Below are positions 2,773 through 50,871 of a stretch of DNA of 64,000 bases, one piece after another. A program made the translations under genes and the position numbers. Below the pieces are notes generated by a model. It was not told the DNA's origin. It saw only the letters and a list, made by a program, of their open reading frames with translations, and searched no databases. The stretch is taken from IMG/VR virus record IMGVR_UViG_3300042885_000900; one strand, 5' to 3'. This DNA comes from a virus. Lineage: Duplodnaviria > Heunggongvirae > Uroviricota > Caudoviricetes. Every line of letters begins with the position of its first letter. Position 1 is the stretch's first letter.

Positions 2773-2774
2773 TT

Positions 2775-32428: not shown

Positions 32429-34105
32429 TTAACTCTCTTTTCTTAATGAACCATCGTAATGTTCAAATCTATCGTGTTCTGTTGGTGTTAGTAATAGTAA
32501 TCCTGGTTTAACGTTACCTTTAATTGTTTCTTGATAAGAGTACGACATAAGAGTTTGTTCGTGAGGATGAGCCCATTTTGTTTCCAAATAACATTTATAA
32601 TTACCTTCTTTTGTTAATACAATCGGCCAATTCGATAAATGGGATTCACCTGTTATATATGGTAACCCTTTATGAATATGTATTTCATCAAATTTTGTTT
32701 TAGGTGAATTGGGGTCTAAACCTTGAACCGGTAATTTAGGGTTGTTTGGCCAATGTTTTTGTCTAAAATCTTGTGGGACGTTATACCAACTCCACTGCAC
32801 ACTATGGTCACCAAAAAACTCACTAAAATTTAACTTTAAAAAATCAAAATTCTCTTTTTGAATAATTCCTAAAGATTTTTGATATAAATTGTCGACAAAT
32901 CTTGGGAATCCATTTCTACACACCTCACCTTTTTTAGGGTAAAACGCCATGTCATCTTCAAAAAAGTAATAAAAATCCAAATCAGTTTCATCGAAATGTT
33001 CAGCAACAAATACCCTACCACCAACAATTCCAATATTATCTTTTTTAATATGTTCAAAACCATATTGTTCACATAGTTCAATATATCTCGGTGTTGTGGT
33101 TAAATCAGTTGAATTATCTAATAAGAATTTCTTTGGTTTCTCCACAAAATCTTTATCGTAGTCCAACATAGATTGGATAAGAACCTCTAATTGTTTTGGT
33201 GAGTTAAATGTGATTACATAAAGAGCTACTTTTGAAGTGTCCAAATTATTCACAACAACATCTTTAGACACTTCCGATTTAACCTCAACCGTCATATCTT
33301 TTAAATCCTCAAAGAATTTACCCATTAACCCATTACCCTCAATTTCCGAGTAAGTAATTAAGTTTGGGTATTTGTATGTCATAATTGTAAATAATGACTC
33401 TTCAGTACCCATTGACCCATTTGAAAGTGTTTCATTCATTAATCCGTAATAAATGGTATTAATTTCCGATATAACATCTTTTTTTCCACCAAAGAAACCT
33501 GCTCTAGCAACCATATTAACAGGTTTACCGGCTAAATCACATAATTCTTGATACTTGAATCCGTGAATTTCGTTATTGGTTTCATAAGGAAAACAAACAA
33601 AGTGAAAGTTCTTAACTAACTGGGGTAATTTATCTAAAACTTTATCATGGGTAAAGTACCCAGGGTGGATTGTGTTGGTTAACCCAGCATCAATCCAAAA
33701 CATATATTCTGACTCAAACTTATCTAAAATTTTTGCATCGTGTAATAAATAAACTTTTGACATAACCAAAGGGTTATACATTTCTAATTTGGCTTGTGTC
33801 GAATCTGTTAACCAACCAACTTGGTTATACCAATCAGGGTTGGTTCTTATTTTTTGAATTTTATCGTAAAATTCACTATTTTTAAACCAAGATAAACTTC
33901 TACGAACAAATTGAGTGTTTTCGGAGCGTCTATTATCTAACACAAATTTTTCTAATTCTTCATCACCAAAAATTATCATATTTACATCAACTTGTAATAG
34001 TTGTTGGAATTTATCTAAATAATGTTGGAATGAGCGAGACCACCCTTCTTGAAGGTCACCTCTTCCAATATCCCATAATCCTGTTACTAATGTTACTTTA
34101 TTCAT
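32429..34105 (-). CDS. HtrL/YibB-like glycosyltransferase fused to second GT-A-like domain
   Basis: TLVTGLWDIGR, MSKV, FWIDAG, GFFGG, TEES; second domain with FFEDD. Confidence 0.7.
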   Translation of the reverse strand: MNKVTLVTGLWDIGRGDLQEGWSRSFQHYLDKFQQLLQVDVNMIIFGDEELEKFVLDNRRSENTQFVRRSLSWFKNSEFYDKIQKIRTNPDWYNQVGWLTDSTQAKLEMYNPLVMSKVYLLHDAKILDKFESEYMFWIDAGLTNTIHPGYFTHDKVLDKLPQLVKNFHFVCFPYETNNEIHGFKYQELCDLAGKPVNMVARAGFFGGKKDVISEINTIYYGLMNETLSNGSMGTEESLFTIMTYKYPNLITYSEIEGNGLMGKFFEDLKDMTVEVKSEVSKDVVVNNLDTSKVALYVITFNSPKQLEVLIQSMLDYDKDFVEKPKKFLLDNSTDLTTTPRYIELCEQYGFEHIKKDNIGIVGGRVFVAEHFDETDLDFYYFFEDDMAFYPKKGEVCRNGFPRFVDNLYQKSLGIIQKENFDFLKLNFSEFFGDHSVQWSWYNVPQDFRQKHWPNNPKLPVQGLDPNSPKTKFDEIHIHKGLPYITGESHLSNWPIVLTKEGNYKCYLETKWAHPHEQTLMSYSYQETIKGNVKPGLLLLTPTEHDRFEHYDGSLRKES

Positions 34106-34110
34106 TGTTT

Positions 34111-35034
34111 TTATATTTTAAAATTTTTTATATCATGCCACATCATATAGAAAGGTTTTAATGGATTTTTTTCTTTATCCCACATTTTATAGTGATAATC
34201 ATCGTGTTCTCCGGATGCAAATGTGTTAAAAATAAATGTAATTTTTTCGTCTTCACTGATTAAATCATAAGATGGTTTCATAATTACTTCTTCTGTACAA
34301 AGTATATTTTTTTCTAATATTTTTTCAGTAAATTCCCAAAATAAATTTATGTATTTTTTTAATATTTGAGTATCACCCCCAAACATACCACCGACCGGAT
34401 AGGGTGATTCAAAAGGTTTGTCTAATATTCCGTGTTGTAAAAAAGGATAACTTATTTGAGGACCATATGAACAAACAAACATTATTTTATTTTCACATAT
34501 TTTATTTAATTTATTATATATTTCGCTATCAATTATTTTTGAAAAATTAAACACATCTAAATGAGCCCACCAATCTGTTGGTACGCCTAAATTTTCATAA
34601 TCCGTATTATAAACTTTAGAGTACATCCAAGGGAATATTCCCGGGTGTTGCAAACCAACATCAACCCAATAAACTTTATCAAACCCATCAAGTTCTCTTT
34701 CCATAACATCAAATTTTCCCCACATTATTTCAGGACCTCTTCCATCTAAATCGGTATCAAAATTATTATTTCTAATTTTTTTAATTTCATTATGGTATTT
34801 TACATCAGATAGTTCTAATATTTTTAACTCTAAATTAGTTAAATCATATCTTACTTTAATATCGTTAAGTTCGTCGTAATTTTTACTATGAGTATAGCAG
34901 ATAACCGGTAAACTACTACCAATACAATGAGAAATTAATGACCCTTGATATCTTATTTTTCTAATTGGGGAGACTCCTTGATATGGATATCCTTCAACAT
35001 CCATCCAATATGTGGTAACAATTTTAGTTTTCAT
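34111..35034 (-). CDS. HtrL/YibB-like putative glycosyltransferase
   Basis: KIVT, WGKF, YWVDVG, GGMFGG, TEE motifs parallel the neighbour. Confidence 0.6.
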   Translation of the reverse strand: MKTKIVTTYWMDVEGYPYQGVSPIRKIRYQGSLISHCIGSSLPVICYTHSKNYDELNDIKVRYDLTNLELKILELSDVKYHNEIKKIRNNNFDTDLDGRGPEIMWGKFDVMERELDGFDKVYWVDVGLQHPGIFPWMYSKVYNTDYENLGVPTDWWAHLDVFNFSKIIDSEIYNKLNKICENKIMFVCSYGPQISYPFLQHGILDKPFESPYPVGGMFGGDTQILKKYINLFWEFTEKILEKNILCTEEVIMKPSYDLISEDEKITFIFNTFASGEHDDYHYKMWDKEKNPLKPFYMMWHDIKNFKI

Positions 35035-35061
35035 AATTTTTTTTATTTATATTTTTTTATT

Positions 35062-35814
35062 TTAAAATCTAATATACAATTGTTCTGATTTATTGTAAAA
35101 TTGGAAACATTGTTGTAGGAAATGATTAAAAGCGTTATCAAAATGCCATTTCATTCCGGCCTCTAAAGCTGATATACCAATTTCAAATCCTTCGGCATAA
35201 TTTCTAATTTTATTTTCAATACTGTACCATAAAAATTGTTCCCATCTTTGGACAAAAAATCTAAATTTATATGAATTTTTAAATATCATAAATTGTTCAT
35301 TAACACAATGAGCTTCATCCCATTTATCGTATTCTAACATATCATAATCTATTAATTTTTGCATAAAAAAACTACCTTCAGGATGGGCTCTACTATCACC
35401 AATTCTTGCTGGTCTCTCAAATACAAAATCATAATCGTTTTCTTTAGTCCAATTTAACATATTTAAAACTTTTTTTTCTGAAAAATGTTCAAACATTGTC
35501 CAATCACCATCTGAAAAAATTATAAATTCATATCCTTCAGAATTAGGGTTATTTTTTTCATACTCTAAAATATGTTTTAGAGATAATACTTTTAAATTAT
35601 AATGAAAACTTGTTGTACCAACCGCTTCGTGATGTAATGATGGAGGGTTAATTACTTTAATTTTAAATCTATCACCTAAATCGGGGAAATTTTCATTTGT
35701 TGTTGTTATGAAAAAATCGCAGTTAGATGTTCTTGACGCTAAATCAGAATAAAATTGAATTGTTTTCTTTTCGTATTCTTCACCAATCGATAATGTTGTA
35801 AAACAATATTTCAT
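35062..35814 (-). CDS. Putative GT-A fold glycosyltransferase
   Basis: N-terminal CFTTLSIGEEY, DxD (FSDGD); operon context. Confidence 0.5.
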   Translation of the reverse strand: MKYCFTTLSIGEEYEKKTIQFYSDLASRTSNCDFFITTTNENFPDLGDRFKIKVINPPSLHHEAVGTTSFHYNLKVLSLKHILEYEKNNPNSEGYEFIIFSDGDWTMFEHFSEKKVLNMLNWTKENDYDFVFERPARIGDSRAHPEGSFFMQKLIDYDMLEYDKWDEAHCVNEQFMIFKNSYKFRFFVQRWEQFLWYSIENKIRNYAEGFEIGISALEAGMKWHFDNAFNHFLQQCFQFYNKSEQLYIRF

Positions 35815-35815
35815 A

Positions 35816-36496
35816 TTATAAGTTAAGGTCTTTTAAATAATTCAAAGCTTGTATTGCACTTGGAACTAATGGTTTATCATTCTCGTCAATTTGCATTCCT
35901 ATAAAAAAATCTTTATTATCTCTATGGATATAGTTTTCTTCACTATCATATCCACAATAGAAGATATTGTTTTTATCAATATTTTCCATATATAATTGTA
36001 GTATTGTTTGGTCGGAACCCCAAACTAATTCATTGTTTTTAATAAATTCATTGAAGTGTTCCTCAAATAAATTTATTTTACGTTTAATTCCAAATAGCCC
36101 ACTTGGTACTGGTGAATGCCAAGGATGGTCTCTTATTATAAAATAATCATTATCTGTTTTTAACCAACTATTAATATAACTAACTTCTCGATGACTAAAT
36201 CTACTATCTAAATCTCTAACAATTGATGGAGTATCCTCTAAAAAACTCAAGAATCTCCAAAAATATGGGAAATGAATTGATTCTAACCCACCTATAGTTA
36301 AATCTTTAACATTAATTAAGTTGGCACCTAATTCAGATAAAATTTTAATGTATTCTGTTAGGATAAAGTCACTATGATAATAAATTCTAATTTCCCAATC
36401 AGGTAATAAAGAATTAACCTCGACGGTATTTTTAACTGCACCAATATAATATTTCATATTGGTTCCAAATAATGTGAATGATACGATTGGTCTCAT
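35816..36496 (-). CDS. Putative glycosyltransferase-like protein
   Basis: SFTLFG, WRFL, RDLDSR, IIRDHPWH, DQ..L motifs; operon context. Confidence 0.55.
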   Translation of the reverse strand: MRPIVSFTLFGTNMKYYIGAVKNTVEVNSLLPDWEIRIYYHSDFILTEYIKILSELGANLINVKDLTIGGLESIHFPYFWRFLSFLEDTPSIVRDLDSRFSHREVSYINSWLKTDNDYFIIRDHPWHSPVPSGLFGIKRKINLFEEHFNEFIKNNELVWGSDQTILQLYMENIDKNNIFYCGYDSEENYIHRDNKDFFIGMQIDENDKPLVPSAIQALNYLKDLNL

Positions 36497-37344
36497 TTTT
36501 CATAAATATTTTTTACGTTTATATTTGAATATCTTTCTTCGTCATCAACAATTAAATTAACGTAAGTGTTGTAAACAGGGTTATCTGAATTCATTCCCGA
36601 GTTTGGGCCGTCATTGGTTAAAGGCCAATATATTTTTTCAGCATTTGATAAAAAACAAGCCCAAAAAGAAAAAGTTCCTTGTGCCGCAATTATTTTATTA
36701 AAAGACGTGATTTCTGAAAAAACATCAAGTATATCACCATCAATTAATTTAGGGTTATATTTTTCTAATTTATTAATTAATGATTGATGTTTATTTATGT
36801 GGTCAAATGAAATATATAAATTATCAAAAGTTTCTTGAGATATTATATTAAGGTAATAACTATCCGGTAAAACAAAACTCCCATCGTGATTACTACTCCT
36901 TAACATAATCACTAAATCATTACTACCCCTTTTATCTTTAACAATACTTTTAAAATATTCTTTAACTTTAATTTTATATGGTTTGATGTAATCATATTTT
37001 GAAAAATATGATTGGTTTATAAATCCGTGATTTGGGTAGGATTGTATTAAATTTTCAATACTACCTAATTGTATAATATCACCATCTTGAATAACTTTAA
37101 TTGGGTTATCCACAATATTTCCTTTAACACCTTTAAATGGAAACATAATTTCATTGTATTGTCCGTTTTTAGTGTCTTCTCTTCTTATTAAGGCATTTTC
37201 CGGAGATATTAACTCGTACCCTAGTAGTTCGCTAATTATTCTACAAGCGGAATATATAAACAATTTATTACCCAAATTTTTTCTTGGAGATGAAAAATAA
37301 CCACCCTCTAAATATGAATCGTATTCATCATAAATTTTAACCAT
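36493..37344 (-). CDS. Alpha-1,2-fucosyltransferase-like protein (GT11)
   Basis: LGNKLF, MLRSS (cf. HxRxGD), YY, GTFSFWACFL. Confidence 0.7.
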   Translation of the reverse strand: MVKIYDEYDSYLEGGYFSSPRKNLGNKLFIYSACRIISELLGYELISPENALIRREDTKNGQYNEIMFPFKGVKGNIVDNPIKVIQDGDIIQLGSIENLIQSYPNHGFINQSYFSKYDYIKPYKIKVKEYFKSIVKDKRGSNDLVIMLRSSNHDGSFVLPDSYYLNIISQETFDNLYISFDHINKHQSLINKLEKYNPKLIDGDILDVFSEITSFNKIIAAQGTFSFWACFLSNAEKIYWPLTNDGPNSGMNSDNPVYNTYVNLIVDDEERYSNINVKNIYEK

Positions 37345-37347
37345 TTT

Positions 37348-38595
37348 TTATAAATTACCCGTTATTCTTTCACACCAACCTTTTGACGTACTAAACGGCC
37401 AAACAACCCAGTATTTTGGTTTATGAACTGTTTGAAATTCTCTCCAAACTTTACAATACCCATCAGGGTCTCTCATCATATTATTAATTTCATTAATGTC
37501 AGCGTCTCTTCTATTTAAAGTTTCATCATTCTCGTCGTGGAAAGCAACTACCCAAAACTCATAATCCTTCTCCGGTACTTGAGTAAATCCAATATCAATA
37601 CAATGTTTGAAGATGCTAGCATAACTCGCCAACCATTCTTCTTCTGTTTCATAAATTGTTGGATTGGGGGCGTAATGTTTGTCTAATGTATATTGTTGAA
37701 CCGCTCTATTTGAAAATTTAAGACCTGAATAAATTTCATAATCCCTTAAAGTTCTTTCAGTTCCAAAACCATAATAACTAAAATCCATAGTGACCTCTTC
37801 ACCATCCATACCAAATAATTGACGATTTTTTAAATGAGATAATTCGTTTTTCTTACCCCACTCTTTATCATCATCCCATTGTTTGGTTCTACCCTTACGA
37901 GTATATTCGTGCCAAATAACGGTTTTATGTGGGTGGAATAAATCATATCCGTGAGTATATGCTCTAACGGCAATTGATATTTCTTCACCGTGAAAATAGA
38001 ACTCAGGGTCGTGTTGAACCTCGACACTAAATTGTCCTACTGTAAATGCCATATGGGCGGAGTAAAATCTTGAGGTAACGGGTTCTTTAAGGTTTTCCCA
38101 CCCCGGAATTGTTTCAGGTAAGAAGAAGACGGCACCTTCTGGTATAAATCTATCAAACGACATTCTCCATGGGTCTCTAACTCTCCCTGCCGGGTCATTG
38201 TCAGGGTCAAATGAAGAAACATACCCTGTCAATAAAGGTTTCTTAAATCCTTTCTTTTGAAGTTGTTTAACCATTTTGATTAAGGTGTCATCCCAATCTT
38301 TCTCAAATCTCATGTGAGAGTCAATTTGTAGGGTATATTCTTCACCTTTATATAATTGTTGTACTTGGTTTCTTGCCCAACAAACACCTTTGGATTCGGT
38401 GTATAAAACGTCAACAACTCTAAATCTTTTATCTTTTGCGTATTCAGATAAATCATCAAACCCGTCTTCCGGGTGATATTGACGACATATTCCAATTACC
38501 AAATTTTTAGGTTTTTTCGCATTCTCCAACATTGACTTAATTGTTGGAATAAGTTGGGGGTCACGATAGGACGCGATTTGTACAAAAATTTTCAT
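37348..38595 (-). CDS. GT60-family polypeptide/hydroxyproline N-acetylglucosaminyltransferase
   Basis: IFVQIASYRDP, SKGVCWAR, LQIDSHMRF..WD, FHGEE, RAYTHGYD, WHEY.R. Confidence 0.85.
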   Translation of the reverse strand: MKIFVQIASYRDPQLIPTIKSMLENAKKPKNLVIGICRQYHPEDGFDDLSEYAKDKRFRVVDVLYTESKGVCWARNQVQQLYKGEEYTLQIDSHMRFEKDWDDTLIKMVKQLQKKGFKKPLLTGYVSSFDPDNDPAGRVRDPWRMSFDRFIPEGAVFFLPETIPGWENLKEPVTSRFYSAHMAFTVGQFSVEVQHDPEFYFHGEEISIAVRAYTHGYDLFHPHKTVIWHEYTRKGRTKQWDDDKEWGKKNELSHLKNRQLFGMDGEEVTMDFSYYGFGTERTLRDYEIYSGLKFSNRAVQQYTLDKHYAPNPTIYETEEEWLASYASIFKHCIDIGFTQVPEKDYEFWVVAFHDENDETLNRRDADINEINNMMRDPDGYCKVWREFQTVHKPKYWVVWPFSTSKGWCERITGNL

Positions 38596-38670
38596 ATTTA
38601 CCTTAATTTATTTAAAAAATAATATTTAAACGAAAAAGATAAATATGAAAATAATTTATTGTGGATTAAT

Positions 38671-41253
38671 TTATGGGTAAATCATAATTAGTTCTAAATA
38701 ACCGGTAGATTGTTGTCCGTATAATTTATTACCAATTGCAAATATTAAATTATATTCCGTTGTAAATGATTGGAAGACCGTCCCATCGGAATTTAAAATT
38801 ATCCAATTTAATGATGGTGTACCATTATATGAAGTAAAAGTACCCCAAAGTAATAATTTATTTGTCCATATTATTGTACAGTAAGAACTAAGGTCTGCTG
38901 TTCCACCTGATAATCCGGTACCACTATTAAAACTAGGGTCAATAGTTCCATCAGACATTAATTTAAGAATTCTGTTGACAGGTGTTCCATTGTACATAGT
39001 AAATCCTCCACCATTGTAATTAGTACCAACAACATAAAAGGATGTTTCTCCGGATATTCGAAAAGTATTAATTGCTTCCTCTCCGTAACTATTAAACCCT
39101 GTACCATAATTAAAACTATCGTCTTTATATCCATTAGATTGTAATTTAATAATATGGTTTGCAGAAATACCACTAAACGACGTGAAATACCCCGTAACAT
39201 ACATAGAATCATCAGGATTAACTAACACACCTTGAGGGATAGTAGGTGCTCCGGCAAATCCTGTTGTTGCTGAGAAAGTCATATCCATAGTACCACCACT
39301 ACTTAGTTTTGCTAAACCATAGATAGGGGTAGTAACTCCATTATATGTCGAAAAATATCCCGGAACTATAATATTACCCAATGAATCAATTCCCGGTACC
39401 GCCGTATAAAAACCGTTAAATCCTGAACCCATAACAAAAGTGTTATCAATACTACCATCAACATTTAATCTAACGATTCTATTTTTGGATACACCACTAT
39501 ATGATGTTAAAAATCCTGTCGCAATTATCTTACCGTCAGGTTGTTGTATGATTGATTCACCATTGTAAAAATAGTCATATGGACCAGCAAATCCTGTACC
39601 ACCAGTAAATGAATAATCAATTGTTAAATCTTGATTTAATTTTATTATACCTCCAGCAGGAACCACATTATTTTCACTATAACCTGTATATGCACCATAG
39701 AAATATCCGCTAGTGGAATTATCAATAAAATCAATTAAATAGGCTGAGTCGTTAGGTTCAAATCTATATTGAGGTGTTGGTGACGGTGTCATTGTTTGAG
39801 TTGGAGTTATTGTTGGTGTCAAAGTCGGAGTTTGTGTTGGTGTTTGACTCGGTATGGGTAACGAACCACTAATGTCAAAAGGACAAGTAAGATTAAAAGC
39901 CGATATAGTGTGAGGAGTATTTGCATAATAACTACTAATATATCCTTTATATCCGTCTTTAAACAGTATTCTAGGCCCACTACCCATATTAATACTTCCA
40001 CTAAGGTTGAGTGTTTGAGTTGAGGTTATACCCGTTATATTATAAGGACTTGATAAAGTATATCTAATTAGATTATTACCACTATTAAACGTAAATAGAT
40101 ACAAACCGTTATTTTGAAAATTAAAATCAGAGACAAATCCGGTCGCAGAGGTAGAGGTTAACGTACCACCAATTATATCCCAAGCACTTGTTAATGTGTA
40201 TTTCTTTAAACCTCCGGTCCCTAATAATACCATAGTTAACCCATCAGGAGTAAATTTAACAACACTTAAACTTGTGCCATATGTTGTAGCTGACGCACTA
40301 AGACTCATTGTGGTTATATCCCAAGGAGTACTTACCGTAAATTTTCTTAAAACACCTGAACTAGCATTACAAACAAATATTTTTGTACCATCAGGTGAAA
40401 AACAGTGTCCTTGAGCACTACTTACAATAGTGTCGGTATTTATAGATACCGCTGCCGGTATTGCATATACTCCAGATGCAGCCGATTGAAAACCATTTGC
40501 AATTATAGTCGATACATCCCAAGGGGTACCTAAATTATACATTATAATTGGGTCATATCCTGTACTTGAACCTACTCCAGTATTATGTCGTGTGAAATAT
40601 ACTTTTGTACCATCCGGATAAAAAGATGAATAACTATTTTGCATCAAAACAGTATACTTTTCATTATTGTAAATTGTTTGTGGAATACATGCAGATACAT
40701 CAGTCGGAGTTACCGTTGGTGTCAGAGTATTTGTTGGCGTAATTGTTGGTGTTTGAGTATTAGTCGGAGTTGGAGTTATTTCGGATGTTGGACAACTATT
40801 ATCAACACAGACACCATTAATTGAGATTATTACATTTTCATCTGCAAACGGTAATTTACCACAAACATAAAAAGTTGTTGATTGAGGGATAACACCTGTA
40901 AATATAGTTTCGTCACATAGAATATAACCAAAATTTAAATTTCCGGTTCCAACATTAATAAAGGCGATGCAACTACAAGAAAGATTTGTTGGTGTTATTG
41001 TTGGTGTTGGTGTTAGTGTTGGGGTGGGTGTAGGTGTAAAACAGTTAATGTAATTTATTGTTTCACATCCTTTACTGTCGGTAATAACTACTAATAATTG
41101 GTTAACCCCATTTAGTTGTGTAGGTGGCGTTATTGTTATGGGTGCTGAAGTCACACCACTAATCGCAAAATAACAATAAGTATATGTAATATCACATATT
41201 GTGATACTAAATGGTGGATGCCCTACTAAACTAGTTATTTCTATTGATTGCAT
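38671..41253 (-). CDS. Modular virion-type protein: Pro/Thr stalks, beta-propeller (PWD repeats) and delta-60-like repeat domain
   Basis: Three (TP)n tracts; FSPDGTK..PWDIT repeats; QPDGKII, RLNVDGSIDNTF..G.GF repeats. Confidence 0.7.
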   Translation of the reverse strand: MQSIEITSLVGHPPFSITICDITYTYCYFAISGVTSAPITITPPTQLNGVNQLLVVITDSKGCETINYINCFTPTPTPTLTPTPTITPTNLSCSCIAFINVGTGNLNFGYILCDETIFTGVIPQSTTFYVCGKLPFADENVIISINGVCVDNSCPTSEITPTPTNTQTPTITPTNTLTPTVTPTDVSACIPQTIYNNEKYTVLMQNSYSSFYPDGTKVYFTRHNTGVGSSTGYDPIIMYNLGTPWDVSTIIANGFQSAASGVYAIPAAVSINTDTIVSSAQGHCFSPDGTKIFVCNASSGVLRKFTVSTPWDITTMSLSASATTYGTSLSVVKFTPDGLTMVLLGTGGLKKYTLTSAWDIIGGTLTSTSATGFVSDFNFQNNGLYLFTFNSGNNLIRYTLSSPYNITGITSTQTLNLSGSINMGSGPRILFKDGYKGYISSYYANTPHTISAFNLTCPFDISGSLPIPSQTPTQTPTLTPTITPTQTMTPSPTPQYRFEPNDSAYLIDFIDNSTSGYFYGAYTGYSENNVVPAGGIIKLNQDLTIDYSFTGGTGFAGPYDYFYNGESIIQQPDGKIIATGFLTSYSGVSKNRIVRLNVDGSIDNTFVMGSGFNGFYTAVPGIDSLGNIIVPGYFSTYNGVTTPIYGLAKLSSGGTMDMTFSATTGFAGAPTIPQGVLVNPDDSMYVTGYFTSFSGISANHIIKLQSNGYKDDSFNYGTGFNSYGEEAINTFRISGETSFYVVGTNYNGGGFTMYNGTPVNRILKLMSDGTIDPSFNSGTGLSGGTADLSSYCTIIWTNKLLLWGTFTSYNGTPSLNWIILNSDGTVFQSFTTEYNLIFAIGNKLYGQQSTGYLELIMIYP

Positions 41254-41297
41254 ATTGATAAATATAATTATAACCCATTTTAATTAAATTGTTTTTC

Positions 41298-41325
41298 TTG
41301 ACAAACATATTCATTTTGTTATTTT
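41298..41325 (+). promoter_or_regulatory. Sigma70-like promoter for plus-strand glycosyltransferase operon
   Basis: TTGACA-N16-TATTTT with TG extension. Confidence 0.45.
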
Positions 41326-41332
41326 TATATCT

Positions 41333-44050: not shown

Positions 44051-44054
44051 TAAA

Positions 44055-45218
44055 ATGGAAATAACTGGAAGTCATATTTATAAAAATTTAAAAATATCCC
44101 AACATGATTCAATATCGGAAAGTTTTGAAGAACTAATCATTTCTCTCAAACCTAGTCAAATTTTAGAAATAGGTACTTTTGGGGGTGGATTAACTTTATT
44201 AATTAGAGATTTATTAGATAATAACGGATTAAAAAATACTAGATTAATAACCTACGATATTAACACACCTTCCCATCTTATGGATTATGTGAGAGAAGGT
44301 TCAAAGATAGATGTTAGAGTTAAAAATATTTTCAATTCCGATTATAATGGTTTAATTGATGAACAGGAGATAATAGATATTATACAATCAAATGGGACAA
44401 CATTAGTTTTATGTGATGGGGGTAATAAAATAAATGAATTTAAAATATTGTCAAATTATTTAAAAGTTGGTGATGTAATTATGGCACATGATTACTCCCC
44501 AAATGAAGAACATTTTCAAAAACATATTAATAATCAAATATGGAATTGGTTTGAAATACAAGATTCAGATATTATTGACTCTTGTATTAAAAATAGTTTA
44601 ATCTCTTATATGGAAGAAAAATTTAGAAATGTTGTTTGGGTTTGTAAAATCAAATCACAAGTTTTGTTATCTATTTTAGTATGTTCTTTACTTGAGAGAA
44701 ATAATACATTTTTAAATAAATTAATTAATTCGGTTGAATCTCAAATCGGTGATAATCCGGTAGAATTTTTAGTATTTTCGGATAACGCGAAAAGGTCTAT
44801 TGGTGCAAAAAGAAATGATTTATTAAGATTATCAAAAGGAAAGTATGTTTCATTCATTGATGATGATGACCGAATTTCCGATACATACATTAAAGATATT
44901 CTTAACGAAATTGTTAATTGGTCACCAGATGTTATCGTTTTTGATGCGGAAATTTCATTTAATGGTTCTAACAATAAATTAGTTAAATATGGTAGGGAAT
45001 ACGATTATTGTGAAAAATCCGATGCGTATTATAGACACCCAAATCATTTAATGGTTCATAAAAAAGAAAATATTACCGAATTTTTTAACAACATTAATTT
45101 TGGTGAAGACGATGAATGGGCGTCGAGAATGTTACCAAGAATCGTAACACAGTCAAGAATAAATAAAATTTTATATTTTTACGATTACAACACCTCAACT
45201 AAAAAAATAATTAAATGA
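44055..45218 (+). CDS. SAM-dependent methyltransferase fused to GT2 glycosyltransferase
   Basis: ILEIGTFGGG, DGG, AHD; LSILVC, IGAKRN, FIDDDD, GED. Confidence 0.8.
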   Translation: MEITGSHIYKNLKISQHDSISESFEELIISLKPSQILEIGTFGGGLTLLIRDLLDNNGLKNTRLITYDINTPSHLMDYVREGSKIDVRVKNIFNSDYNGLIDEQEIIDIIQSNGTTLVLCDGGNKINEFKILSNYLKVGDVIMAHDYSPNEEHFQKHINNQIWNWFEIQDSDIIDSCIKNSLISYMEEKFRNVVWVCKIKSQVLLSILVCSLLERNNTFLNKLINSVESQIGDNPVEFLVFSDNAKRSIGAKRNDLLRLSKGKYVSFIDDDDRISDTYIKDILNEIVNWSPDVIVFDAEISFNGSNNKLVKYGREYDYCEKSDAYYRHPNHLMVHKKENITEFFNNINFGEDDEWASRMLPRIVTQSRINKILYFYDYNTSTKKIIK

Positions 45219-45844
45219 TGGAAAGATTTAATATTATAAATTACTTGATAGAAAACAATAATTATAAAAGTTTTTTGGAAATTGGGACTCAGGAGCGTAT
45301 CAATTTATCCAAAATAATTATTGATAAAAAAATTAGTGTTGACCCAGACCCAAATGTTAATAGTGATTTTAATATATCTTCCGATGATTTTTTTAAACAA
45401 AATATGGATAAATTTGATATTATTTTTATAGATGGACTACATCATGCCGATTTTGCGTATAGAGATATAATAAATTCATTAAAAATATTAAATAAAGACG
45501 GTTGCATTGTTGTTCACGATGTTATACCACATTCATATGAAAGCCAACTAATCCCGTTAGAAAAAACATTGTTAAACGGTACATCAATATGGAATGGTGA
45601 TGTTTGGAAAACATGGATTAAATTAAGAACTGAAAGAAAAGATTTAATGATGAAAGTTGTGAATACCGACCACGGATGTGGTATCATACATTTAACAAAC
45701 TATAATAACGGAGATTTTTTAGAATCTTACAATAATGGCTATTATGAATATAATAAAGAACTTATATTATCATCATTAAATCTAATTTCTTCTGACAAAT
45801 TTTTAACATTATTTAAAACCCCAATTTCTAAACAATATGATTAA
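45215..45844 (+). CDS. Class I SAM-dependent methyltransferase
   Basis: FLEIG, VDP, FDIIFIDGLH, IVVHD, WNGDVWK. Confidence 0.85.
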   Translation: MMERFNIINYLIENNNYKSFLEIGTQERINLSKIIIDKKISVDPDPNVNSDFNISSDDFFKQNMDKFDIIFIDGLHHADFAYRDIINSLKILNKDGCIVVHDVIPHSYESQLIPLEKTLLNGTSIWNGDVWKTWIKLRTERKDLMMKVVNTDHGCGIIHLTNYNNGDFLESYNNGYYEYNKELILSSLNLISSDKFLTLFKTPISKQYD

Positions 45845-48698
45845 TAATATTTTTAACATAGATAAAAATACCATATCTATTGATGTGATTTGTTTATCAA
45901 ACACTAAAGATAAAAGTTTTTATAATTTAACAAAACAGACATTAGACACCCTTTTACTAACCAAAGGGGGGTATGTTTTTAACATAAAATTAATAGAATC
46001 TAATATTGAATCTAAATTTATTTATGATTATCCGAATTTAAATGTTATCACACCAAATGAAAAATTTAATTATAATAAATTCTTAAATATTGGGTTGTCA
46101 TATTGTGAAAGTGAATGGATATTAATTATCAATAATGATTTAATATTTACTGAAGATTGGTTAAATAACATATTAATTGAATATTCTTTAAATCCTAACA
46201 TAAAATCTTTTTCACCCTTTGAACCTGAATGGGTTCAAAATTATTATAATGGTTCATTTAAAGAGGGTAATGTTTTTTTAGGTTATAATCCTTGTGTTGA
46301 GTTATACGGGTGGTGTATATTAGTTAAGAAAGAAGTAATAGATTTAATAGGCGGGTTTGATGAACAATTTGAATTTTATTATCAAGATAATGATTATGGT
46401 TTAACTTTACAAAAGCACAATATTCCACATGCTTTAATTAAAAATTCTATAGTTTATCATTTAGTATCTAAAAGCCATGAATTAATACCGAATGATAAAC
46501 ACAAGTCAAACACAAGAATAATGGAAAAATTATTTAGAAATAAATGGGAAAAATGGGAAAAAATAAATAACTATATGAGAATAACACAAGTAACTCCGGG
46601 AGTAATCCCAATACCCCCTAATGGATGGGGAGCCGTCGAAAAAATATTATGGTGCTACCATAACGAATTTAATTCTTTGGGTCACGAATGTACTATAAAA
46701 TATTTAAATGAGGCGTCTACCGATAATTCGGATATTATACATATCCATATTGCCAATTTAGCATTAGATGCTGCGGAAAGAGGTGTCCCTTACATCTTTT
46801 CATTACACGACCATCATGTTGTTCATTATGGAAAAGATTCATTTAACTATCGTCAAAATTTAGAAGCAATACAAAAATCCGTAATTTCATTTTGTCACGC
46901 AGAATATTTAGTTGATTACTTTGAAGGGACTGATAAATTATTCTATCTATCTCATGGAGTGGAAGTTGATTATTTTAAAGTCGATAATTTATATAGAGAA
47001 GAACATAAATTACTTTGTATTGCTAATAATGGTATTGGAGGTGACTCCTCGTTTGATAGAAAAGGGTTTAGATACGCAATAGAATCTGCAAAAAAATTAA
47101 ATCTTCCAATAACAATTGCCGGACCGGAAAACAATAAATTATTTTTTCAACACCACCCTGACTTATTAGAATACGAAAAATTAACGCTATTATTAACCAA
47201 TTTAAGTGAAGATGAAATTTTAGAGTTATATAAATCACACTCAATATTTTTACACCCATCCATATTGGAAGCTGGTCACCCAAATTTAACATTATTAGAG
47301 GCTGTCTCTTGTGGACTTCCTGTTGTTGGAACTTACGAGGGGTCTCAAAAGATTGACGGTATGATTATATCCGAAAGAAATTCTGATTTAGTTGCGAATG
47401 CTATCTCGGAAATAATAAATCAATATAAACATTATGTTGATTTAACCCAAAACAATAGAACTAAATTTGATTGGACAACTATTTGTAAAAGAATGGTTAA
47501 AATGTATGAGGTGGTTACCTCAATAAAAAAGGAATACTCATCTGAAGAAACCAAAAATTTATTTATAAAAAATTTTAACAATATAACGAAAACAATGGGA
47601 TTAATAAACTCAAATAACCAAAATGTAAAACCAGATGTAAAATATAATTTTCATTTTGTTAATCAACCTTTTTTTGAAATATTAGGTGATAGTGATAAAA
47701 AATTTAATGTTGAATTTTATGATAGTAGTGGATTGCATCATCACACAGAATTATCGTCAAATATGTGGACTAAAGTAAGTCGAGAATACTTTACAAATTG
47801 GTATATCAAAGTTTCTTGTGATAATGATATTGTTTTTGAATATAACCTTGATTTAACAAATAGAAGAGTTTTCATTTCTTTTGAATCTAGTTCATTGGGA
47901 GATAGTATTGCTTGGATACCTTATGTTTTAGAATTTAAAAAACAACATAATTGTATTGTAATTGTCTCAACTTTTTGGAATAAATTATTTAAAAAATCCT
48001 ATCCTGAATTAGAGTTTATTGAACCGGGTTCAACGGTACATAATTTATTTGCCTTATACAGAATTGGGTGGTTTGAAAACGAAACAAAAGAACCGTTTTA
48101 CCCTAATACAATACCATTACAAAAAACAATCACAAATCTTTTAAAATTAGAACATTCCGAAATTAAAGCAACACTTGATTTTACACCTAAAGTAAAACCT
48201 ATGGTTGAGAAGTATATAACAATTGCCGATGAATCAACCGCAGGATTAAAACTATGGAATAACCCAAAAGGGTGGCAAGAACTTATTGATTATTTAACTG
48301 GATTAGGTTATAAAATTATTAATATATCTAAACACGGTGGAAATTATAAAAATGTTACAAAATTAAAAGACACATCAATAGAGAATACAATGAACTATAT
48401 TCACCATAGTGAATTCTTTATTGGGTTATCAAGTGGATTGTCTTGGCTTTCATGGGCGTTAGGAAAACATGTTGTTATGATTTCTAATTTTACCGAATCT
48501 AACCATGAATTTACCACAAACTGTACTAGAATTACAAATGATTCTGTATGTAATGGATGTTGGAATAAGTCAGAATTTAGATTTGACCGTGGTGATTGGA
48601 ATTGGTGTCCCGAAAATAAAGGAACACCTCGTCAGTTTGAGTGTCACAAATCAATAACCTCTGAAATGGTGATAAAACAGATACAACATTTATTATAA
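45837..48698 (+). CDS. Triple glycosyltransferase fusion: GT2 + GT4 + autotransporter-type (AAH/TibC-like) heptosyltransferase
   Basis: NNDL..GGFDEQF..YQDND; IPPNGWGAVE..EAGHPNLTLLEA; SLGDSIAW, FIGLSSGLSWL, C-x2-C-x15-C-x11-C. Confidence 0.82.
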   Translation: MINNIFNIDKNTISIDVICLSNTKDKSFYNLTKQTLDTLLLTKGGYVFNIKLIESNIESKFIYDYPNLNVITPNEKFNYNKFLNIGLSYCESEWILIINNDLIFTEDWLNNILIEYSLNPNIKSFSPFEPEWVQNYYNGSFKEGNVFLGYNPCVELYGWCILVKKEVIDLIGGFDEQFEFYYQDNDYGLTLQKHNIPHALIKNSIVYHLVSKSHELIPNDKHKSNTRIMEKLFRNKWEKWEKINNYMRITQVTPGVIPIPPNGWGAVEKILWCYHNEFNSLGHECTIKYLNEASTDNSDIIHIHIANLALDAAERGVPYIFSLHDHHVVHYGKDSFNYRQNLEAIQKSVISFCHAEYLVDYFEGTDKLFYLSHGVEVDYFKVDNLYREEHKLLCIANNGIGGDSSFDRKGFRYAIESAKKLNLPITIAGPENNKLFFQHHPDLLEYEKLTLLLTNLSEDEILELYKSHSIFLHPSILEAGHPNLTLLEAVSCGLPVVGTYEGSQKIDGMIISERNSDLVANAISEIINQYKHYVDLTQNNRTKFDWTTICKRMVKMYEVVTSIKKEYSSEETKNLFIKNFNNITKTMGLINSNNQNVKPDVKYNFHFVNQPFFEILGDSDKKFNVEFYDSSGLHHHTELSSNMWTKVSREYFTNWYIKVSCDNDIVFEYNLDLTNRRVFISFESSSLGDSIAWIPYVLEFKKQHNCIVIVSTFWNKLFKKSYPELEFIEPGSTVHNLFALYRIGWFENETKEPFYPNTIPLQKTITNLLKLEHSEIKATLDFTPKVKPMVEKYITIADESTAGLKLWNNPKGWQELIDYLTGLGYKIINISKHGGNYKNVTKLKDTSIENTMNYIHHSEFFIGLSSGLSWLSWALGKHVVMISNFTESNHEFTTNCTRITNDSVCNGCWNKSEFRFDRGDWNWCPENKGTPRQFECHKSITSEMVIKQIQHLL

Positions 48699-48699
48699 C

Positions 48700-48725
48700 A
48701 AAAAACCCCAATTAAGGGGTTTTTT
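48700..48725. terminator. Bidirectional intrinsic terminator
   Basis: AAAAAACCCC-AATTAA-GGGGTTTTTT between convergent genes. Confidence 0.8.
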
Positions 48726-49600
48726 TATTGTTTTCTAATTGAATCTATAATTTGATTTACATCAAAAATTTCATTTAAATCATTATACGGAATACTTGTC
48801 ATATCTTGGAATAATAAATATTTAGAATAATGACTATGGTCTAACATAATCTCTTTTGTTGGGGTATTTGCCGTTATATTTGTATTGGTGTGATATCCGA
48901 AAACATTGGGGTTAGTTCCAACCCAAGTAACAACCGATGGTAAATTTAATGCCATCGCAATGTGCATAACGCTTGAATCTATTAACAATCGTTTTTTAGA
49001 TAAACTTAATAGAATTGCTATACTCCTAAAATCGTCTAACGCTTGTAATGTATCTTCATAAACAAATTGGTCTTCCCTTTTAATGTGGAGAATTACGTAA
49101 TCATTTTTAAAATATCTAATCACTTCCTCTATTGTTGGTTGAGGTATATCACGAGTCCAACTATATTTTAATGGTTGTCCAGCCGCTCCACCGTTTGGTT
49201 GGATAACCATAATTGGTTTATCCACTTTATAGAATTGCGTGAAGTATTGTTTTTCAGCTTCAGATATAAAAATTTCAGGTAATTCTCCTCTATATTCAAC
49301 CTTGAACATTTCACACCAAATTTGAATTAAATGTTTGGATTCTGTAATGTAATCTGATGTTTGATATGGTTCACCAACAAACACTTTAGATTCTTGGTTC
49401 ATAATGTATTTAGCGTAAATACCCGATAATTGACCGTGATTTAATACCTTGTTCATATTTGGATTGTTAATAAAAATATCCGGAAAACCAGTTACTACAA
49501 TTATATAATCGTCAGGGTATTGTCTTCTAATGGCTTTTAATACGGCGGTTCCCATTACACTTTTTCCGAGACCACCTTCTATTGAAAATATTATATTCAT
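48725..49600 (-). CDS. GT9-like (heptosyltransferase-fold) glycosyltransferase
   Basis: GGLGK, F.NNP, IDSSVMHIAMALNLPSVV.W. Confidence 0.7.
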   Translation of the reverse strand: MNIIFSIEGGLGKSVMGTAVLKAIRRQYPDDYIIVVTGFPDIFINNPNMNKVLNHGQLSGIYAKYIMNQESKVFVGEPYQTSDYITESKHLIQIWCEMFKVEYRGELPEIFISEAEKQYFTQFYKVDKPIMVIQPNGGAAGQPLKYSWTRDIPQPTIEEVIRYFKNDYVILHIKREDQFVYEDTLQALDDFRSIAILLSLSKKRLLIDSSVMHIAMALNLPSVVTWVGTNPNVFGYHTNTNITANTPTKEIMLDHSHYSKYLLFQDMTSIPYNDLNEIFDVNQIIDSIRKQ

Positions 49601-49610
49601 CTTTGTTTTT

Positions 49611-50057
49611 TTAATTGTTTAATATTTTTTTTATACATTCATTAACCCCAATGTTTGTGGTGTCAATATTAATAAAGTTTTCTGTAGGTGATTCATAATC
49701 ATCAACAAACAAATTCTCTCTACCTCTAATTTCTGATGTGTGAACATAAATCTCTGTGATTTTTCTACCCATCTTTTTCTTAAATTCTTCTCTTTGGTCT
49801 TTATAAGGTGATACTAATGAAACAACGACATGAACACTTTTAGAATTAAGGTATTGAGACATTTGTTGAGCGAGTTGTATATTTTTTCTTCTACCCTCTT
49901 CAGAATAATCTTTATTATCAAATAAATCTCTAATATCATCACCATCAATATGGAAACATAATTCTCTTTTAGAATCAACAATTGATGAACATAATTCTTT
50001 CGCCATTGTTGTTTTACCGGCTCCCGGCTGACCTGTTATCCAAAATATATTAGACAT
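49611..50057 (-). CDS. cysC: Adenylyl-sulfate (APS) kinase
   Basis: IFWITGQPGAGKTT, IDGD.IR, GRRKNI, SLVSPY, YESP; start reassigned to ATG 50057, which overlaps the sulfotransferase stop. Confidence 0.88.
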   Translation of the reverse strand: MSNIFWITGQPGAGKTTMAKELCSSIVDSKRELCFHIDGDDIRDLFDNKDYSEEGRRKNIQLAQQMSQYLNSKSVHVVVSLVSPYKDQREEFKKKMGRKITEIYVHTSEIRGRENLFVDDYESPTENFINIDTTNIGVNECIKKILNN

Positions 50058-50871
50058 ACCCAAAATAATCATAAAACCATTTATAGTGATTCTTAATATT
50101 GGTGGATAATTCATAACCCAATATATCCAAATAATCATCCGGTAATTTTCTAAATTCTTTTCTCAATACATGGTCACCATATATACCGTGAACAACATCA
50201 TTTTCGTTTGTCACCTGTTCGATATATTCAAAATTGTGTCCTTGATACATTGGTTGTCCAACATAGTCGTAAAATCGTTTTAATTCTCTTTCAGGGTTAT
50301 CCATTAAATCCTCATATCTAATAAATAAAATTTTAGTATGAAGTCCTTGTTGGAAGATATCTTGTAGTCGGTCTAATGTGACACCAACCGGTGGTCCACT
50401 AGCCCAAATATCAATTCGTTTATTTACAGTTGTTCCAACCAATTCGTTTGGGTTCTGTACATGACTTTCTTTGTGGGGGTTTTTTCTAAAGTTCTTTTCC
50501 ATTGAGGAATAGACACATCTGATGTCTCTAACCATACAAACAATCTTTGGGTCTTCTTTGAATAAACTCAATAGATTGTAATTAATACCCCACCCTCGAC
50601 TCTTATCTAACACATAGGGTTTATCTGTTAATTCCTCAAAGAATCCTTGAATCCCTTTTCTACAAAAATTAATGAATGCTTTTTCCATTAATTTAGGGTC
50701 TTGTGCTCTAATTTCTTGAGAACCATTATAATGATTTTTTGCTCCTGACACCAACTCAATTAATCCTGATGTTGGGGTTACGTAAAATTGGGGGTTTTGT
50801 CCGATTAAATTTTGAAATAGGGTTGAACCTGCTCTAGGTAGAGAAGAGTTAAAAAAGATTATCTTATCCAT
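50050..50871 (-). CDS. PAPS-dependent sulfotransferase
   Basis: SLPRAGSTL (5'-PSB loop), DKS, VRD...VYSS (3'-PB), IRYEDL..P. Confidence 0.88.
   Translation of the reverse strand: MDKIIFFNSSLPRAGSTLFQNLIGQNPQFYVTPTSGLIELVSGAKNHYNGSQEIRAQDPKLMEKAFINFCRKGIQGFFEELTDKPYVLDKSRGWGINYNLLSLFKEDPKIVCMVRDIRCVYSSMEKNFRKNPHKESHVQNPNELVGTTVNKRIDIWASGPPVGVTLDRLQDIFQQGLHTKILFIRYEDLMDNPERELKRFYDYVGQPMYQGHNFEYIEQVTNENDVVHGIYGDHVLRKEFRKLPDDYLDILGYELSTNIKNHYKWFYDYFGYV

Follow-up and report, generated by a model that had tools for sequence, protein, structure and literature searches.

Background

Glycosylation of a virus particle by enzymes that the virus itself encodes is known for mycobacteriophages, chloroviruses, and Mimivirus. 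In mycobacteriophages, phage-encoded glycosyltransferases place O-linked glycans on the phage's own structural proteins, creating a surface shield (Freeman et al. 2023, as recounted in PMC12619734 and PMC12801897). The subject of the present work is a stretch of 64,000 nucleotides (nt) of tailed-phage DNA (IMG/VR record IMGVR_UViG_3300042885_000900; Caudoviricetes), referred to throughout as the window, in which positions 32429-50871 carry a dense cluster of genes for glycosyltransferases, methyltransferases, and sulfation enzymes set among genes for repeat-rich proteins. The cluster is like the mycobacteriophage system in that the enzymes are phage-encoded and the phage's own proteins are the proposed acceptors, a proposal made here from genes alone. 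However, according to the accounts cited, the mycobacteriophages are small siphoviruses of Actinobacteria whose capsid and tail-tube subunits are modified at the C-termini, whereas the candidate acceptors here are Thr-Pro linkers, (TP)n, and Gly/Ser-rich fibers of a myovirus of ~320 kilobases (kb). Relative to that system as described there, the window cluster also has many more transferases, enzymes for sulfation, and candidate priming enzymes of the GT60 and BAHT types.

In Dictyostelium and Trypanosoma cruzi, GT60 polypeptide α-N-acetylglucosamine (GlcNAc)-transferases initiate mucin-type O-glycans on spacers rich in Thr and Pro, and the Skp1 hydroxyproline GlcNAc-transferase is a GT60 relative. 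The GT60 protein of the window belongs to the same Pfam family and keeps the DxH motif, and its candidate Thr-Pro acceptors resemble the protist mucin-like spacers; however, the protist mucin-type enzymes are Golgi membrane proteins, while the window enzyme is soluble and phage-encoded. The second family, BAHT, includes the pairs TibC/TibA and Aah/AIDA-I (PMC4358343; PDB 4RAP, 4RB4). A domain encoded in the window resembles these enzymes in its catalytic Asp, in its Cys4 iron finger, and in three of the four residues that bind the sugar, and its gene likewise lies close to that of a repeat-rich, Ser/Thr-rich, probably β-structured candidate acceptor. Unlike them, it shares one polypeptide with GT2 and GT4 domains (and, in relatives, with FkbM methyltransferase and GT32-like domains) and stands in a phage setting, where no autotransporter is matched in Pfam or NCBIfam near its gene among the scanned open reading frames (ORFs) of the window. 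To our knowledge, the characterized members of both families have protein acceptors only.

Chlorovirus capsid glycans are made by multi-domain glycosyltransferase-methyltransferase proteins, and Mimivirus glycosylates its fibrils and collagen. These giant viruses share with the window a virus-encoded cytoplasmic machinery, glycosyltransferase-methyltransferase fusions, methylated sugars (predicted in the case of the window), collagen-like proteins, and gene sets that vary among strains. However, their hosts are eukaryotic and their enzyme families are different, and we know of no description in them of sulfation or of BAHT or GT60 primers. Among phages, the cyanomyoviruses S-SCSM2R, S-SCSM1, and P-SSM2 carry at least 10 glycosyltransferases, including GT10, GT11, GT25, and GT2 (PMC12801897). 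Those islands are read as modifying the host surface or DNA, with no link to acceptor proteins reported, whereas the candidate primers of the window belong to protein-directed families and co-vary with repeat proteins. Finally, O-antigen and capsule loci share with the window a variable glycosyltransferase cassette between conserved flanks, implying diversifying selection on an exposed glycan, but the window, whose enzymes are all soluble, is without their genes for lipid-carrier initiation, flippase, polymerase, and export. A literature search yielded no paper that connects phages with GT60, with BAHT enzymes, or with decoration of virions by a sulfotransferase; thus, with respect to the literature searched, the combination of GT60, BAHT, and sulfation would be new.

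The enzyme cluster

A first-pass annotation of this DNA described a single assembly line of ten glycosyltransferase-like genes, with about 15 glycosyltransferase domains, that coats the phage's own fibers or stalks with fucosylated, methylated, and sulfated glycans. The ORFs lie where that annotation placed them, and its two methyltransferase domains, APS (adenosine 5'-phosphosulfate) kinase, and sulfotransferase all pass curated Pfam cutoffs. The domain count is an upper bound: nine domains are solid (a curated score threshold or fold support), five are leads (a match that is indirect or below cutoff), and one is unassigned. Within 32429-50871, no hydrophobic segment is found in any enzyme, and among the window matches there is no Pfam family of a flippase, polymerase, ligase, initiating phosphoglycosyltransferase, or Gtr-type membrane protein, as had been claimed for the flippase and polymerase.

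The explanation that we favor, with somewhat better than even confidence, is cytoplasmic O-glycosylation, O-methylation, and sulfation by the phage of its own fiber or appendage proteins before assembly. The comparisons described below suggest that the machinery has two or more arms, each specific for its own acceptors, together with a hypervariable cassette for tailoring; one linear assembly line was replaced by this two-arm arrangement after the co-occurrence tests. GT60 and AAH/TibC had been named from the start as protein-priming families, and membership in both families is confirmed: the GT60 protein scores 236 bits and the BAHT domain is above its cutoff with the catalytic Asp and Cys4 finger retained, and protein-directed families therefore support the favored explanation.

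The same gene content bears on a rival explanation, in which, during infection, the enzymes remodel glycans of the host envelope (capsule, exopolysaccharide, the core or O-antigen of lipopolysaccharide (LPS), or glycoproteins of the host), and the Thr/Pro (T/P) and collagen-like genes are mere neighbors. Such remodeling could block superinfection or alter recognition of the cell by grazers or other phages. Large cyanomyoviruses with up to 13 glycosyltransferases (GT10, GT11, GT25, GT2) have been read in this way, as modifying the host cell wall (PMC12801897), GT9, GT25, and HtrL_YibB are LPS-associated families, and soluble glycosyltransferases can use undecaprenyl-linked acceptors at the membrane. 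However, the window lacks the membrane and initiating functions listed above, and the known acceptors of GT60 and BAHT enzymes are proteins.

The GT60 enzyme and its candidate acceptors

The gene at 37348-38595 (minus strand) encodes a GT60-family glycosyltransferase of 415 amino acids (aa) that matches PF11397 at 236.1 bits (cutoff 21) and phrog_24687 at E=9e-168; a sequence search of the PDB gave no match. Residues Y10, R11, D12, P13, D92, S93, H94, G203, and E205 are invariant across three lineages whose enzymes are 37-47% identical, and they fall in an N-terminal YRDP motif, a DSH motif (the DxH metal/donor motif), and a GxE motif.

T/P tracts occur in exactly four ORFs of the window (30770-32383, 38671-41253, 58434-59435, and 60057-63998), all of them in its 30-64 kb half, and the strict (TP)4 pattern has three matches in the window compared with none in shuffles. 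The candidate acceptor next to GT60 (38671-41253, minus strand, 860 aa) is the first gene of the minus-strand array. Its three (TP)n linkers (nt 40984-41043, 40702-40779, and 39772-39846) join small Cys-rich modules and DUF5122 β-propeller repeats. A second candidate (30770-32383, minus strand, 537 aa), directly downstream of the enzymes and with a homologue in 68 loci, consists of an N-terminal domain, a 53-aa (TP)n linker (nt 31805-31963), and BspA-type leucine-rich repeats (LRRs). On the far side of the cluster are two more minus-strand candidates, each with three T/P tracts: a 333-aa protein (58434-59435), which in relatives has homologues encoded upstream of the paired T/P-protein and GT60 genes, and a protein of more than 1313 aa (60057-63998) that has BspA-type LRR cassettes and runs off the window. 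Between these and the enzymes lies a collagen-like, fiber-like protein of 1564 aa (53722-58416, minus strand), a candidate acceptor of the TibC-type, GT9-like, and sulfation enzymes. It contains a (Gly-Ser/Thr-Ser/Thr)n collagen-like region (nt 57382-57771; Pfam Collagen) and two blocks of Gly/Ser-rich 'STIGGG' repeats (nt 54307-56715), and its PHROG matches, collagen-like minor tail and tail fiber proteins, are made through the collagen repeats only. The T/P-tract scan and the collagen match thus agree with the earlier description of a Pro/Thr-stalk protein embedded among the enzymes with Pro/Thr- and Ser/Thr/Gly-repeat proteins on both sides.

It is gene position that would place the T/P proteins in the virion. 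A second rival explanation accepts protein glycosylation but proposes targets outside the virion, either host proteins or phage decoys or adhesins that are released at lysis. It calls on the same protein-directed families, the T/P proteins have no recognized virion domain, and LRR and propeller modules are generic binding domains. Nevertheless, the cluster lies inside a block with sheath, baseplate, and collagen-like fiber genes and is co-directional with them; in phage XacN1, a T/P-tract protein follows the baseplate wedge genes; and the collagen-like protein matches tail-fiber PHROGs, though via its repeats. Non-virion targets are therefore considered improbable.

Between GT60 and the second T/P protein, five minus-strand genes encode further known or possible glycosyltransferases, the first four of which form a variable cassette. 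The 283-aa product of 36493-37344 is a GT11-like lead: it matches phrog_2644 (glycosyltransferase) at E=6.5e-4, while its match to Pfam GT11 (PF01531; E=0.011) covers a C-terminal motif only, at 15.4 bits against a cutoff of 23.9, and PF01531 is present in 16-27% of the members of its Atlas neighbor clusters. The earlier description of the glycan as fucosylated depends on this sub-threshold match and is in doubt. The 226-aa product of 35816-36496 is a lead as well; its nearest Atlas clusters, which are viral and have no Pfam family, are auto-named glycosyltransferase, with GT8/Nucleotid_trans at score 0.92, and a permissive Pfam search (E up to 10) yielded noise only. The 250-aa product of 35062-35814 has no Pfam family and 127 homologues, all without annotation, but its AlphaFold model (AF2, predicted local distance difference test (pLDDT) 94.9) identifies it as a predicted GT-A enzyme closest to GT6. 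The best Foldseek matches are α-1,3-GalT, GTA/GTB, and BoGT6a (E ~1e-6, TM ~0.5), and a D102-x-D104 motif is invariant. The last cassette protein (34111-35034, 307 aa) is an HtrL/YibB-like lead, which aligns by BLASTP (E=0.011) to the N-terminal domain of the protein that follows, including the W-x-D-x-G-L and GG-x-FGG motifs; a relative of it matches Pfam HtrL_YibB at E=0.012. That following protein (32429-34105, 558 aa) is a dual GT-A enzyme, composed of an HtrL_YibB domain (nt 33266-34105, 72 bits) and a second GT-A domain (nt 32432-33238). Its AF2 model (pLDDT 83) is a tandem of two GT-A domains, with LH3/PLOD3, Mimivirus R699, LARGE1, K4CP (chondroitin polymerase), and PmHS2 (heparosan synthase) as the best Foldseek matches. 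Permissive Pfam searches (E up to 10) found no match for 34111-35034 or for the C-terminal half of 32429-34105.

The minus-strand order is therefore (TP)n protein, GT60, four small cassette genes, dual GT-A enzyme, second (TP)n protein, and a papain-like peptidase. The gaps between the genes from 41253 onward are 0-75 nt, no terminator-like site was found on this strand between 41253 and 29744, and the genes from 41253 to 30770 are apparently transcribed as a single unit. A divergent promoter-like pair lies in the 80-nt gap at 41253-41333, but this support is weak because promoter-like sites in the region are no commoner than in shuffles.

Conservation and variation around GT60

GT60 has 430 homologues in IMG/VR, and 80 related loci were compared (55 non-redundant loci for the count of upstream ORFs). 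Across the 80 loci the order is conserved: a T/P-tract protein, GT60, a variable cassette, the dual GT-A enzyme (found in 71 of the 80), a T/P-LRR protein, and, further on, the family B DNA polymerase (PolB). The ORF immediately upstream of GT60 carries a T/P tract in 47 of the 55 non-redundant loci, compared with 9.8% of the other ORFs there. The length of this upstream ORF varies between ~100 and 3315 aa, and its sequences are often unrelated; the T/P tract is retained while the gene that carries it turns over.

The interval from GT60 to the dual GT-A enzyme shows 36 cassette architectures and 57 gene families in 70 loci. These families include GT25, GT10, GT11, GT2, GT34, GT7-like, and PLOD-type glycosyltransferases, FkbM and other methyltransferases, and a carbamoyltransferase, aminotransferase, acetyltransferase, and nucleotidyltransferase. 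Cassettes differ even in loci with a GT60 that is 98-99% identical to the window enzyme, and in the minimal form (locus L225) GT60 is followed directly by the dual GT-A enzyme. A hypervariable cassette between conserved flanks is as expected for an exposed glycan under selection; it also resembles O-antigen loci, as the envelope-remodeling explanation would have it.

GT60 homologues that are 37-47% identical to the window enzyme are present in two other phage groups. In one pair of loci (L101/L103), a 402-aa protein with three (TP)n tracts is encoded immediately upstream of GT60. In XacN1, GT60 adjoins a carbamoyltransferase and a GT9 gene, and a 3313-aa (TP)n-tract protein is encoded ~9 kb downstream, after the baseplate wedge genes; RAS14 is similar, with (TP)n tracts in a giant gene within ~10 kb downstream of GT60. 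The carbamoyltransferase beside GT60 in XacN1 (L083, 13409-15706) is of the NodU/CmcH type, which is also found in cassettes of the window's own lineage (L003-L082), and this suggests that O-carbamoylated sugars are a recurrent decoration.

At the level of whole genomes, the strict (TP)4 DNA pattern is present in 10 of 11 GT60-positive genomes, which were not chosen for the tract, and in none of seven GT60-negative large phages (~3 megabases in total: LR756501, LR756504, LR756508, Mel-JY01, phiKZ, Bacillus phage G, and IME08). Fisher's test gives p=2.5e-4 for this contrast, ignoring phylogeny, and the genomes represent only about three independent lineages. In the reverse test, of 80 viral loci picked solely for a (TP)5 tract among the matches listed, four encode GT60 homologues and one encodes a TibC-type and GT4 pair. 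The co-occurrence of GT60 with Pro/Thr proteins, which the first-pass annotation had proposed to look for, is thus seen among neighboring ORFs, among genomes, and in the reverse test.

The TibC-type domain and the sulfation enzymes

On the plus strand, the operon 41333-48698 begins with a 905-aa, three-domain protein (41333-44050) that consists of a GT4 domain (nt 41333-42277, Pfam 38.6 bits), a middle domain for which a permissive Pfam search (E up to 10) gave no match, and a C-terminus that is a GT25-like lead (E=0.013). The next gene (44055-45218, 387 aa) encodes a methyltransferase-GT2 fusion, in which a CmcI/rhamnosyl-O-methyltransferase-type domain (PF04989, 24.6 bits, cutoff 23.2) is joined to GT2 (PF00535, 27.5 bits, cutoff 23.3), and it is followed by a class I methyltransferase (Methyltransf_24, 34.4 bits; 45215-45844, 209 aa). 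The last gene (45837-48698, 953 aa) encodes a triple fusion of GT2-like (~nt 45867-46556, 23.4 bits), GT4 (~nt 46575-47516, 47.9 bits), and BAHT/TibC-type (nt 47700-48689) domains. A strong terminator-like hairpin (48700-48725) ends the operon.

The TibC-type domain (residues 622-951) matches the Aah/TibC equivalog TIGR04414 at 277.8 bits (cutoff 200) and TibC itself (PDB 4RAP) at E=1e-48. In TibC, Asp110 is the catalytic base, ADP-heptose is bound by Arg286, Trp305, Thr226, and Lys230, and the iron finger is formed by Cys339, 342, 358, and 370 (PMC4358343). The window domain keeps the equivalents of Asp110 (the Asp of SLGD), Thr226, Lys230, and Trp305 together with the four Cys residues of the finger. 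However, one of the five donor and catalytic residues differs, Arg286 being replaced by Thr, and the donor may therefore not be heptose. Because no autotransporter is found in the scanned ORFs and the nearest repeat-rich candidate is the protein of 53722-58416, the sequence suggests a domain that would work like BAHT enzymes but on another class of acceptor.

Three minus-strand genes converge on the hairpin of the plus-strand operon. The one nearest to it (48725-49600, 291 aa) is a lead for a GT9 (heptosyltransferase)-like protein, with matches to Pfam GT9 at E=1.2e-3, to NCBIfam heptosyltransferase I/II at E=0.03, and, over the same region, to WaaC in the PDB at E=0.26; BLASTP detects no similarity between it and the TibC-type domain. 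The second (49611-50138) encodes an APS kinase (CysC, PF01583; 72.6 bits, cutoff 21.1) with a GQPGAGKT P-loop and an IDGDD (D-G-D) motif. Its start is probably Met28 (nt 50057), which would overlap the sulfotransferase stop by 8 nt; a homologue in a smaller lake phage (L235, below) is 154 aa and aligns from residue 31 of the window protein. The third (50050-50871, 273 aa) encodes a sulfotransferase dependent on PAPS (3'-phosphoadenosine 5'-phosphosulfate) that matches PF13469 at 55.6 bits and PF00685 at 42.7 bits and has more than 1800 environmental homologues. It contains a PRAGST loop of the 5'-phosphosulfate-binding type and an RD...S motif, in line with PAPS binding.

Relatives of these enzymes are found near a different kind of repeat. 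Syntenic homologues of the TibC-type protein and the 905-aa GT4 protein are encoded in LR756501, a 735-kb phage, where a collagen-like gene with (G-S/T-S/T)n repeats adjoins them. Mel-JY01, a cultured Microcystis phage, has its TibC-type domain at the end of a 1226-aa FkbM-type protein, and the gene for this protein is preceded by a long collagen-like frame and a Ser-rich 'structural protein'. Overall, three of four lineages have a TibC-type gene near such a collagen-like gene, and in the window's own lineage the two are within a few kb. Counts of the collagen-like DNA pattern are 1446 in LR756501, 12 in Mel-JY01, and 33 in a complete relative of the window, compared with none in six TibC-negative phages. 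The long frame of Mel-JY01 (L002, PP395634.1) is open on the plus strand from base 2 to 3052, encodes Gly-Ser/Thr repeats, and ends just before the 'structural protein' and TibC-type genes, and the deposited minus-strand coding sequences 1-651 and 739-2298 resemble shadow ORFs over these repeats. In six related loci (L016-L019, L028, and L069; gene at ~3.4-8.7 kb of each locus), the TibC-type protein is 1447 aa, and in L016 FkbM methyltransferase and GT32-like (DXD) domains lie N-terminal to the GT4 and TibC/GT9-type domains. From these sequences, domain shuffling around a constant C-terminal domain, the putative primer, is evident.

The genes for sulfotransferase, APS kinase, and the GT9-like protein accompany the TibC-type gene in six related loci. 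The same trio, its order unchanged, recurs in a smaller lake phage that bears RecT and is unrelated to the window phage (L235), with identities to the window of 64% (sulfotransferase), 45% (APS kinase), and 65% (GT9-like). Immediately ahead of it are genes for three proteins rich in Gly, Ser, Thr, and Asn, with homology to the repeat region of 53722-58416; in L235-L238, homologues of 53722-58416 lie directly upstream of the trio. Given the adjacency of collagen-like genes and a trio that travels with fiber homologues, the TibC-type/sulfation arm is tied to Gly/Ser-rich fibers and not to (TP)n linkers. Co-occurrence with such fibers is observed for the TibC-type enzymes in LR756501 and Mel-JY01 and for the GT9-like and sulfation enzymes in L235. 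Envelope remodeling leaves unexplained the persistence of T/P tracts beside GT60, the (TP)4 contrast, and a sulfation trio that moves with fiber homologues, and it is regarded as rather unlikely.

A proposed two-arm pathway

From the enzyme families and folds, their solubility, the gene order, and the co-occurrences seen here, we infer the acceptors, the sugars, the order of steps, the location in the virion, and the biological role as follows. In the first arm (minus strand, 41253 to 30770), GT60 would prime Thr residues of the (TP)n linkers, by analogy with its family using an N-acetylhexosamine (HexNAc), and the cassette (the GT11-like, 226-aa, GT6-like, and HtrL-like proteins) together with the dual GT-A enzyme would extend and cap the glycan, the cassette setting a strain-specific structure. 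In the second arm, which comprises the operon on the plus strand (41333-48698) and the genes that converge on it (48725-50871), priming of Ser/Thr in collagen-like and β-roll fibers such as the product of 53722-58416 would fall to the TibC-type and GT9-like enzymes. The fused GT2/GT4 domains and the 905-aa protein would then extend the fiber glycan, and the CmcI-type and Methyltransf_24 enzymes would O-methylate sugars. APS kinase would convert host APS to PAPS, with which the sulfotransferase would sulfate the glycan. All steps would occur in the cytoplasm before assembly. The result would probably be a surface coat of variable structure, with effects on adsorption, stability, or recognition; the roles in shielding, stiffening, and adhesion offered by the first-pass annotation are speculation.

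Several observations weigh against this pathway. The phage is uncultured and is known here through its gene content and context. GT9, GT25, HtrL, GT11, and GT10 are typical of LPS and O-antigen synthesis, and soluble glycosyltransferases also act on lipid-linked acceptors. The T/P proteins, besides their lack of a recognized virion domain, have PHROG matches to function-unknown families, and T/P-tract genes are scattered over several parts of the ~320-kb relatives, not all of them linked to the enzymes. The co-occurrence tests were framed after the pattern was seen, as well as representing few independent lineages; one GT60-positive genome (G006) is without a strict (TP)4 tract, and two loci (L225 and L226) show no T/P gene within their flanks. 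On the side of the second arm, LR756504 has a stand-alone TibC-like gene and no collagen-like repeats, and the sugar-binding Arg286 of TibC is Thr in the window domain. Genes for ATP sulfurylase and for nucleotide-sugar synthesis are absent from the window.

A further rival explanation is that the glycosyltransferases hypermodify phage DNA bases with glycans against restriction. There is precedent for phage glycosyltransferases that assemble modifications of several sugars on DNA (Pyle 2024, as cited in PMC12619734), and the window encodes a Mom-like protein (10672-12252), so that DNA modification probably does occur in this phage. However, Pfam and PHROGs assign no enzyme of the cluster to a DNA glycosyltransferase family, no hydroxymethylase is present in the window, and the association with repeat proteins is left unexplained. 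We know of no DNA precedent for sulfation, sugar O-methylation, or BAHT/GT60 chemistry. Consequently, DNA hypermodification is judged highly improbable.

Glycosylation of the phage's own appendages by two arms thus remains the favored explanation. The earlier idea that the phage coats its own fibers or stalks is supported by the protein-directed primer families, the solubility of the enzymes, and the co-occurrences, while fucose and a heptose donor are in doubt, and its single assembly line gives way to at least two acceptor-specific arms and a hypervariable cassette. A bolder form of the proposal, which is plausible but to which we give somewhat less than even credence, is that a widespread family of jumbo phages in fresh water covers its own appendages with a glycoprotein coat that varies among strains and bears methyl and sulfate groups. 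This coat would be started by two orthogonal primers, GT60 on (TP)n and a BAHT/GT9-type plus PAPS route on collagen-like/β-roll fibers, and recombination of the cassette between its two conserved flanking enzymes would generate 'glycan serotypes' of the virion in the manner of O-antigens.

The phage and other genes of the window

The window (G+C ~30%) encodes a tail sheath protein (13831-17634, minus strand, 1267 aa), a T4-type baseplate protein (9865-10620), and, by profile match, PolB (26955-29744), together with an SNF2 helicase and many large proteins without annotation. The sheath and baseplate matches identify the predicted source as a large myovirus-type phage, in line with the phage assignment made in the first-pass annotation. 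A giant eukaryotic virus, considered in view of the low G+C, collagen, PolB, and GT60, is ruled out by the same two matches. Megablast of 24 kb of the window against INPHARED found no near-identical phage DNA; related contigs that are rated complete are ~320 kb, and the window DNA recurs in lake and freshwater metagenomes from 23 studies (2016 to 2024).

Five GT60-encoding contigs (L224-L228, 60-84% identical to the window GT60, some also with the dual GT-A enzyme) sit in metagenome-assembled genomes (MAGs) labeled Bacteroidetes, Saprospiraceae (two), Melainabacteria, and Geobacter. These are probably phage contigs swept into the bins. Three of the five closely related contigs are in Bacteroidota MAGs, two of these Saprospiraceae, which is a weak hint of a Bacteroidota host because the binning of phage contigs is unreliable.

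The sheath protein is about twice the length of T4 gp18, aligns with the T4 type only over its last ~400 residues, and has its best overall matches in Mel-JY01 and LR756508. In the SNF2-family helicase (20971-23847, plus strand), a LAGLIDADG_3 domain (residues 404-461) interrupts the SNF2 match (residues 165-751) and is probably an intein or homing-endonuclease insertion. The next gene (23885-25423, plus strand, 512 aa) encodes an Fe/Mn superoxide dismutase domain at residues 36-226 and a C-terminal half (~280 aa) without a family match. Beside the baseplate gene, the 526-aa product of 10672-12252 (minus strand) contains DUF7487 and a Mom-like domain; it may modify DNA bases and stands apart from the glycosylation cluster. 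The sole membrane-type product close to the cluster is that of an 87-aa ORF (51013-51276, minus strand) with two to three hydrophobic helices, which matches no family and lacks a counterpart in those related loci that were examined.

Implications

In its bolder form, the proposal would make this the first system for sulfated glycoproteins in a bacterial virus and would give GT60 enzymes of bacteria and phages their first function. If the proposed pathway is correct, soluble primers for short repeats, GT60 for (TP)n and the BAHT type for Gly/Ser, and a compact sulfation trio would be useful for cytoplasmic glycoengineering, and the hypervariable cassette is a tractable model of diversifying selection on a viral glycan. 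The pathway would also offer a reading for the glycosyltransferase islands of aquatic phages, which are usually ascribed to modification of the host surface or of DNA. For the phages themselves, it would mean that tailed phages of lakes routinely carry self-made mucin-like and proteoglycan-like surfaces, and it would change the view of phage adsorption, particle stability, aggregation, grazing, and immune or lectin recognition.

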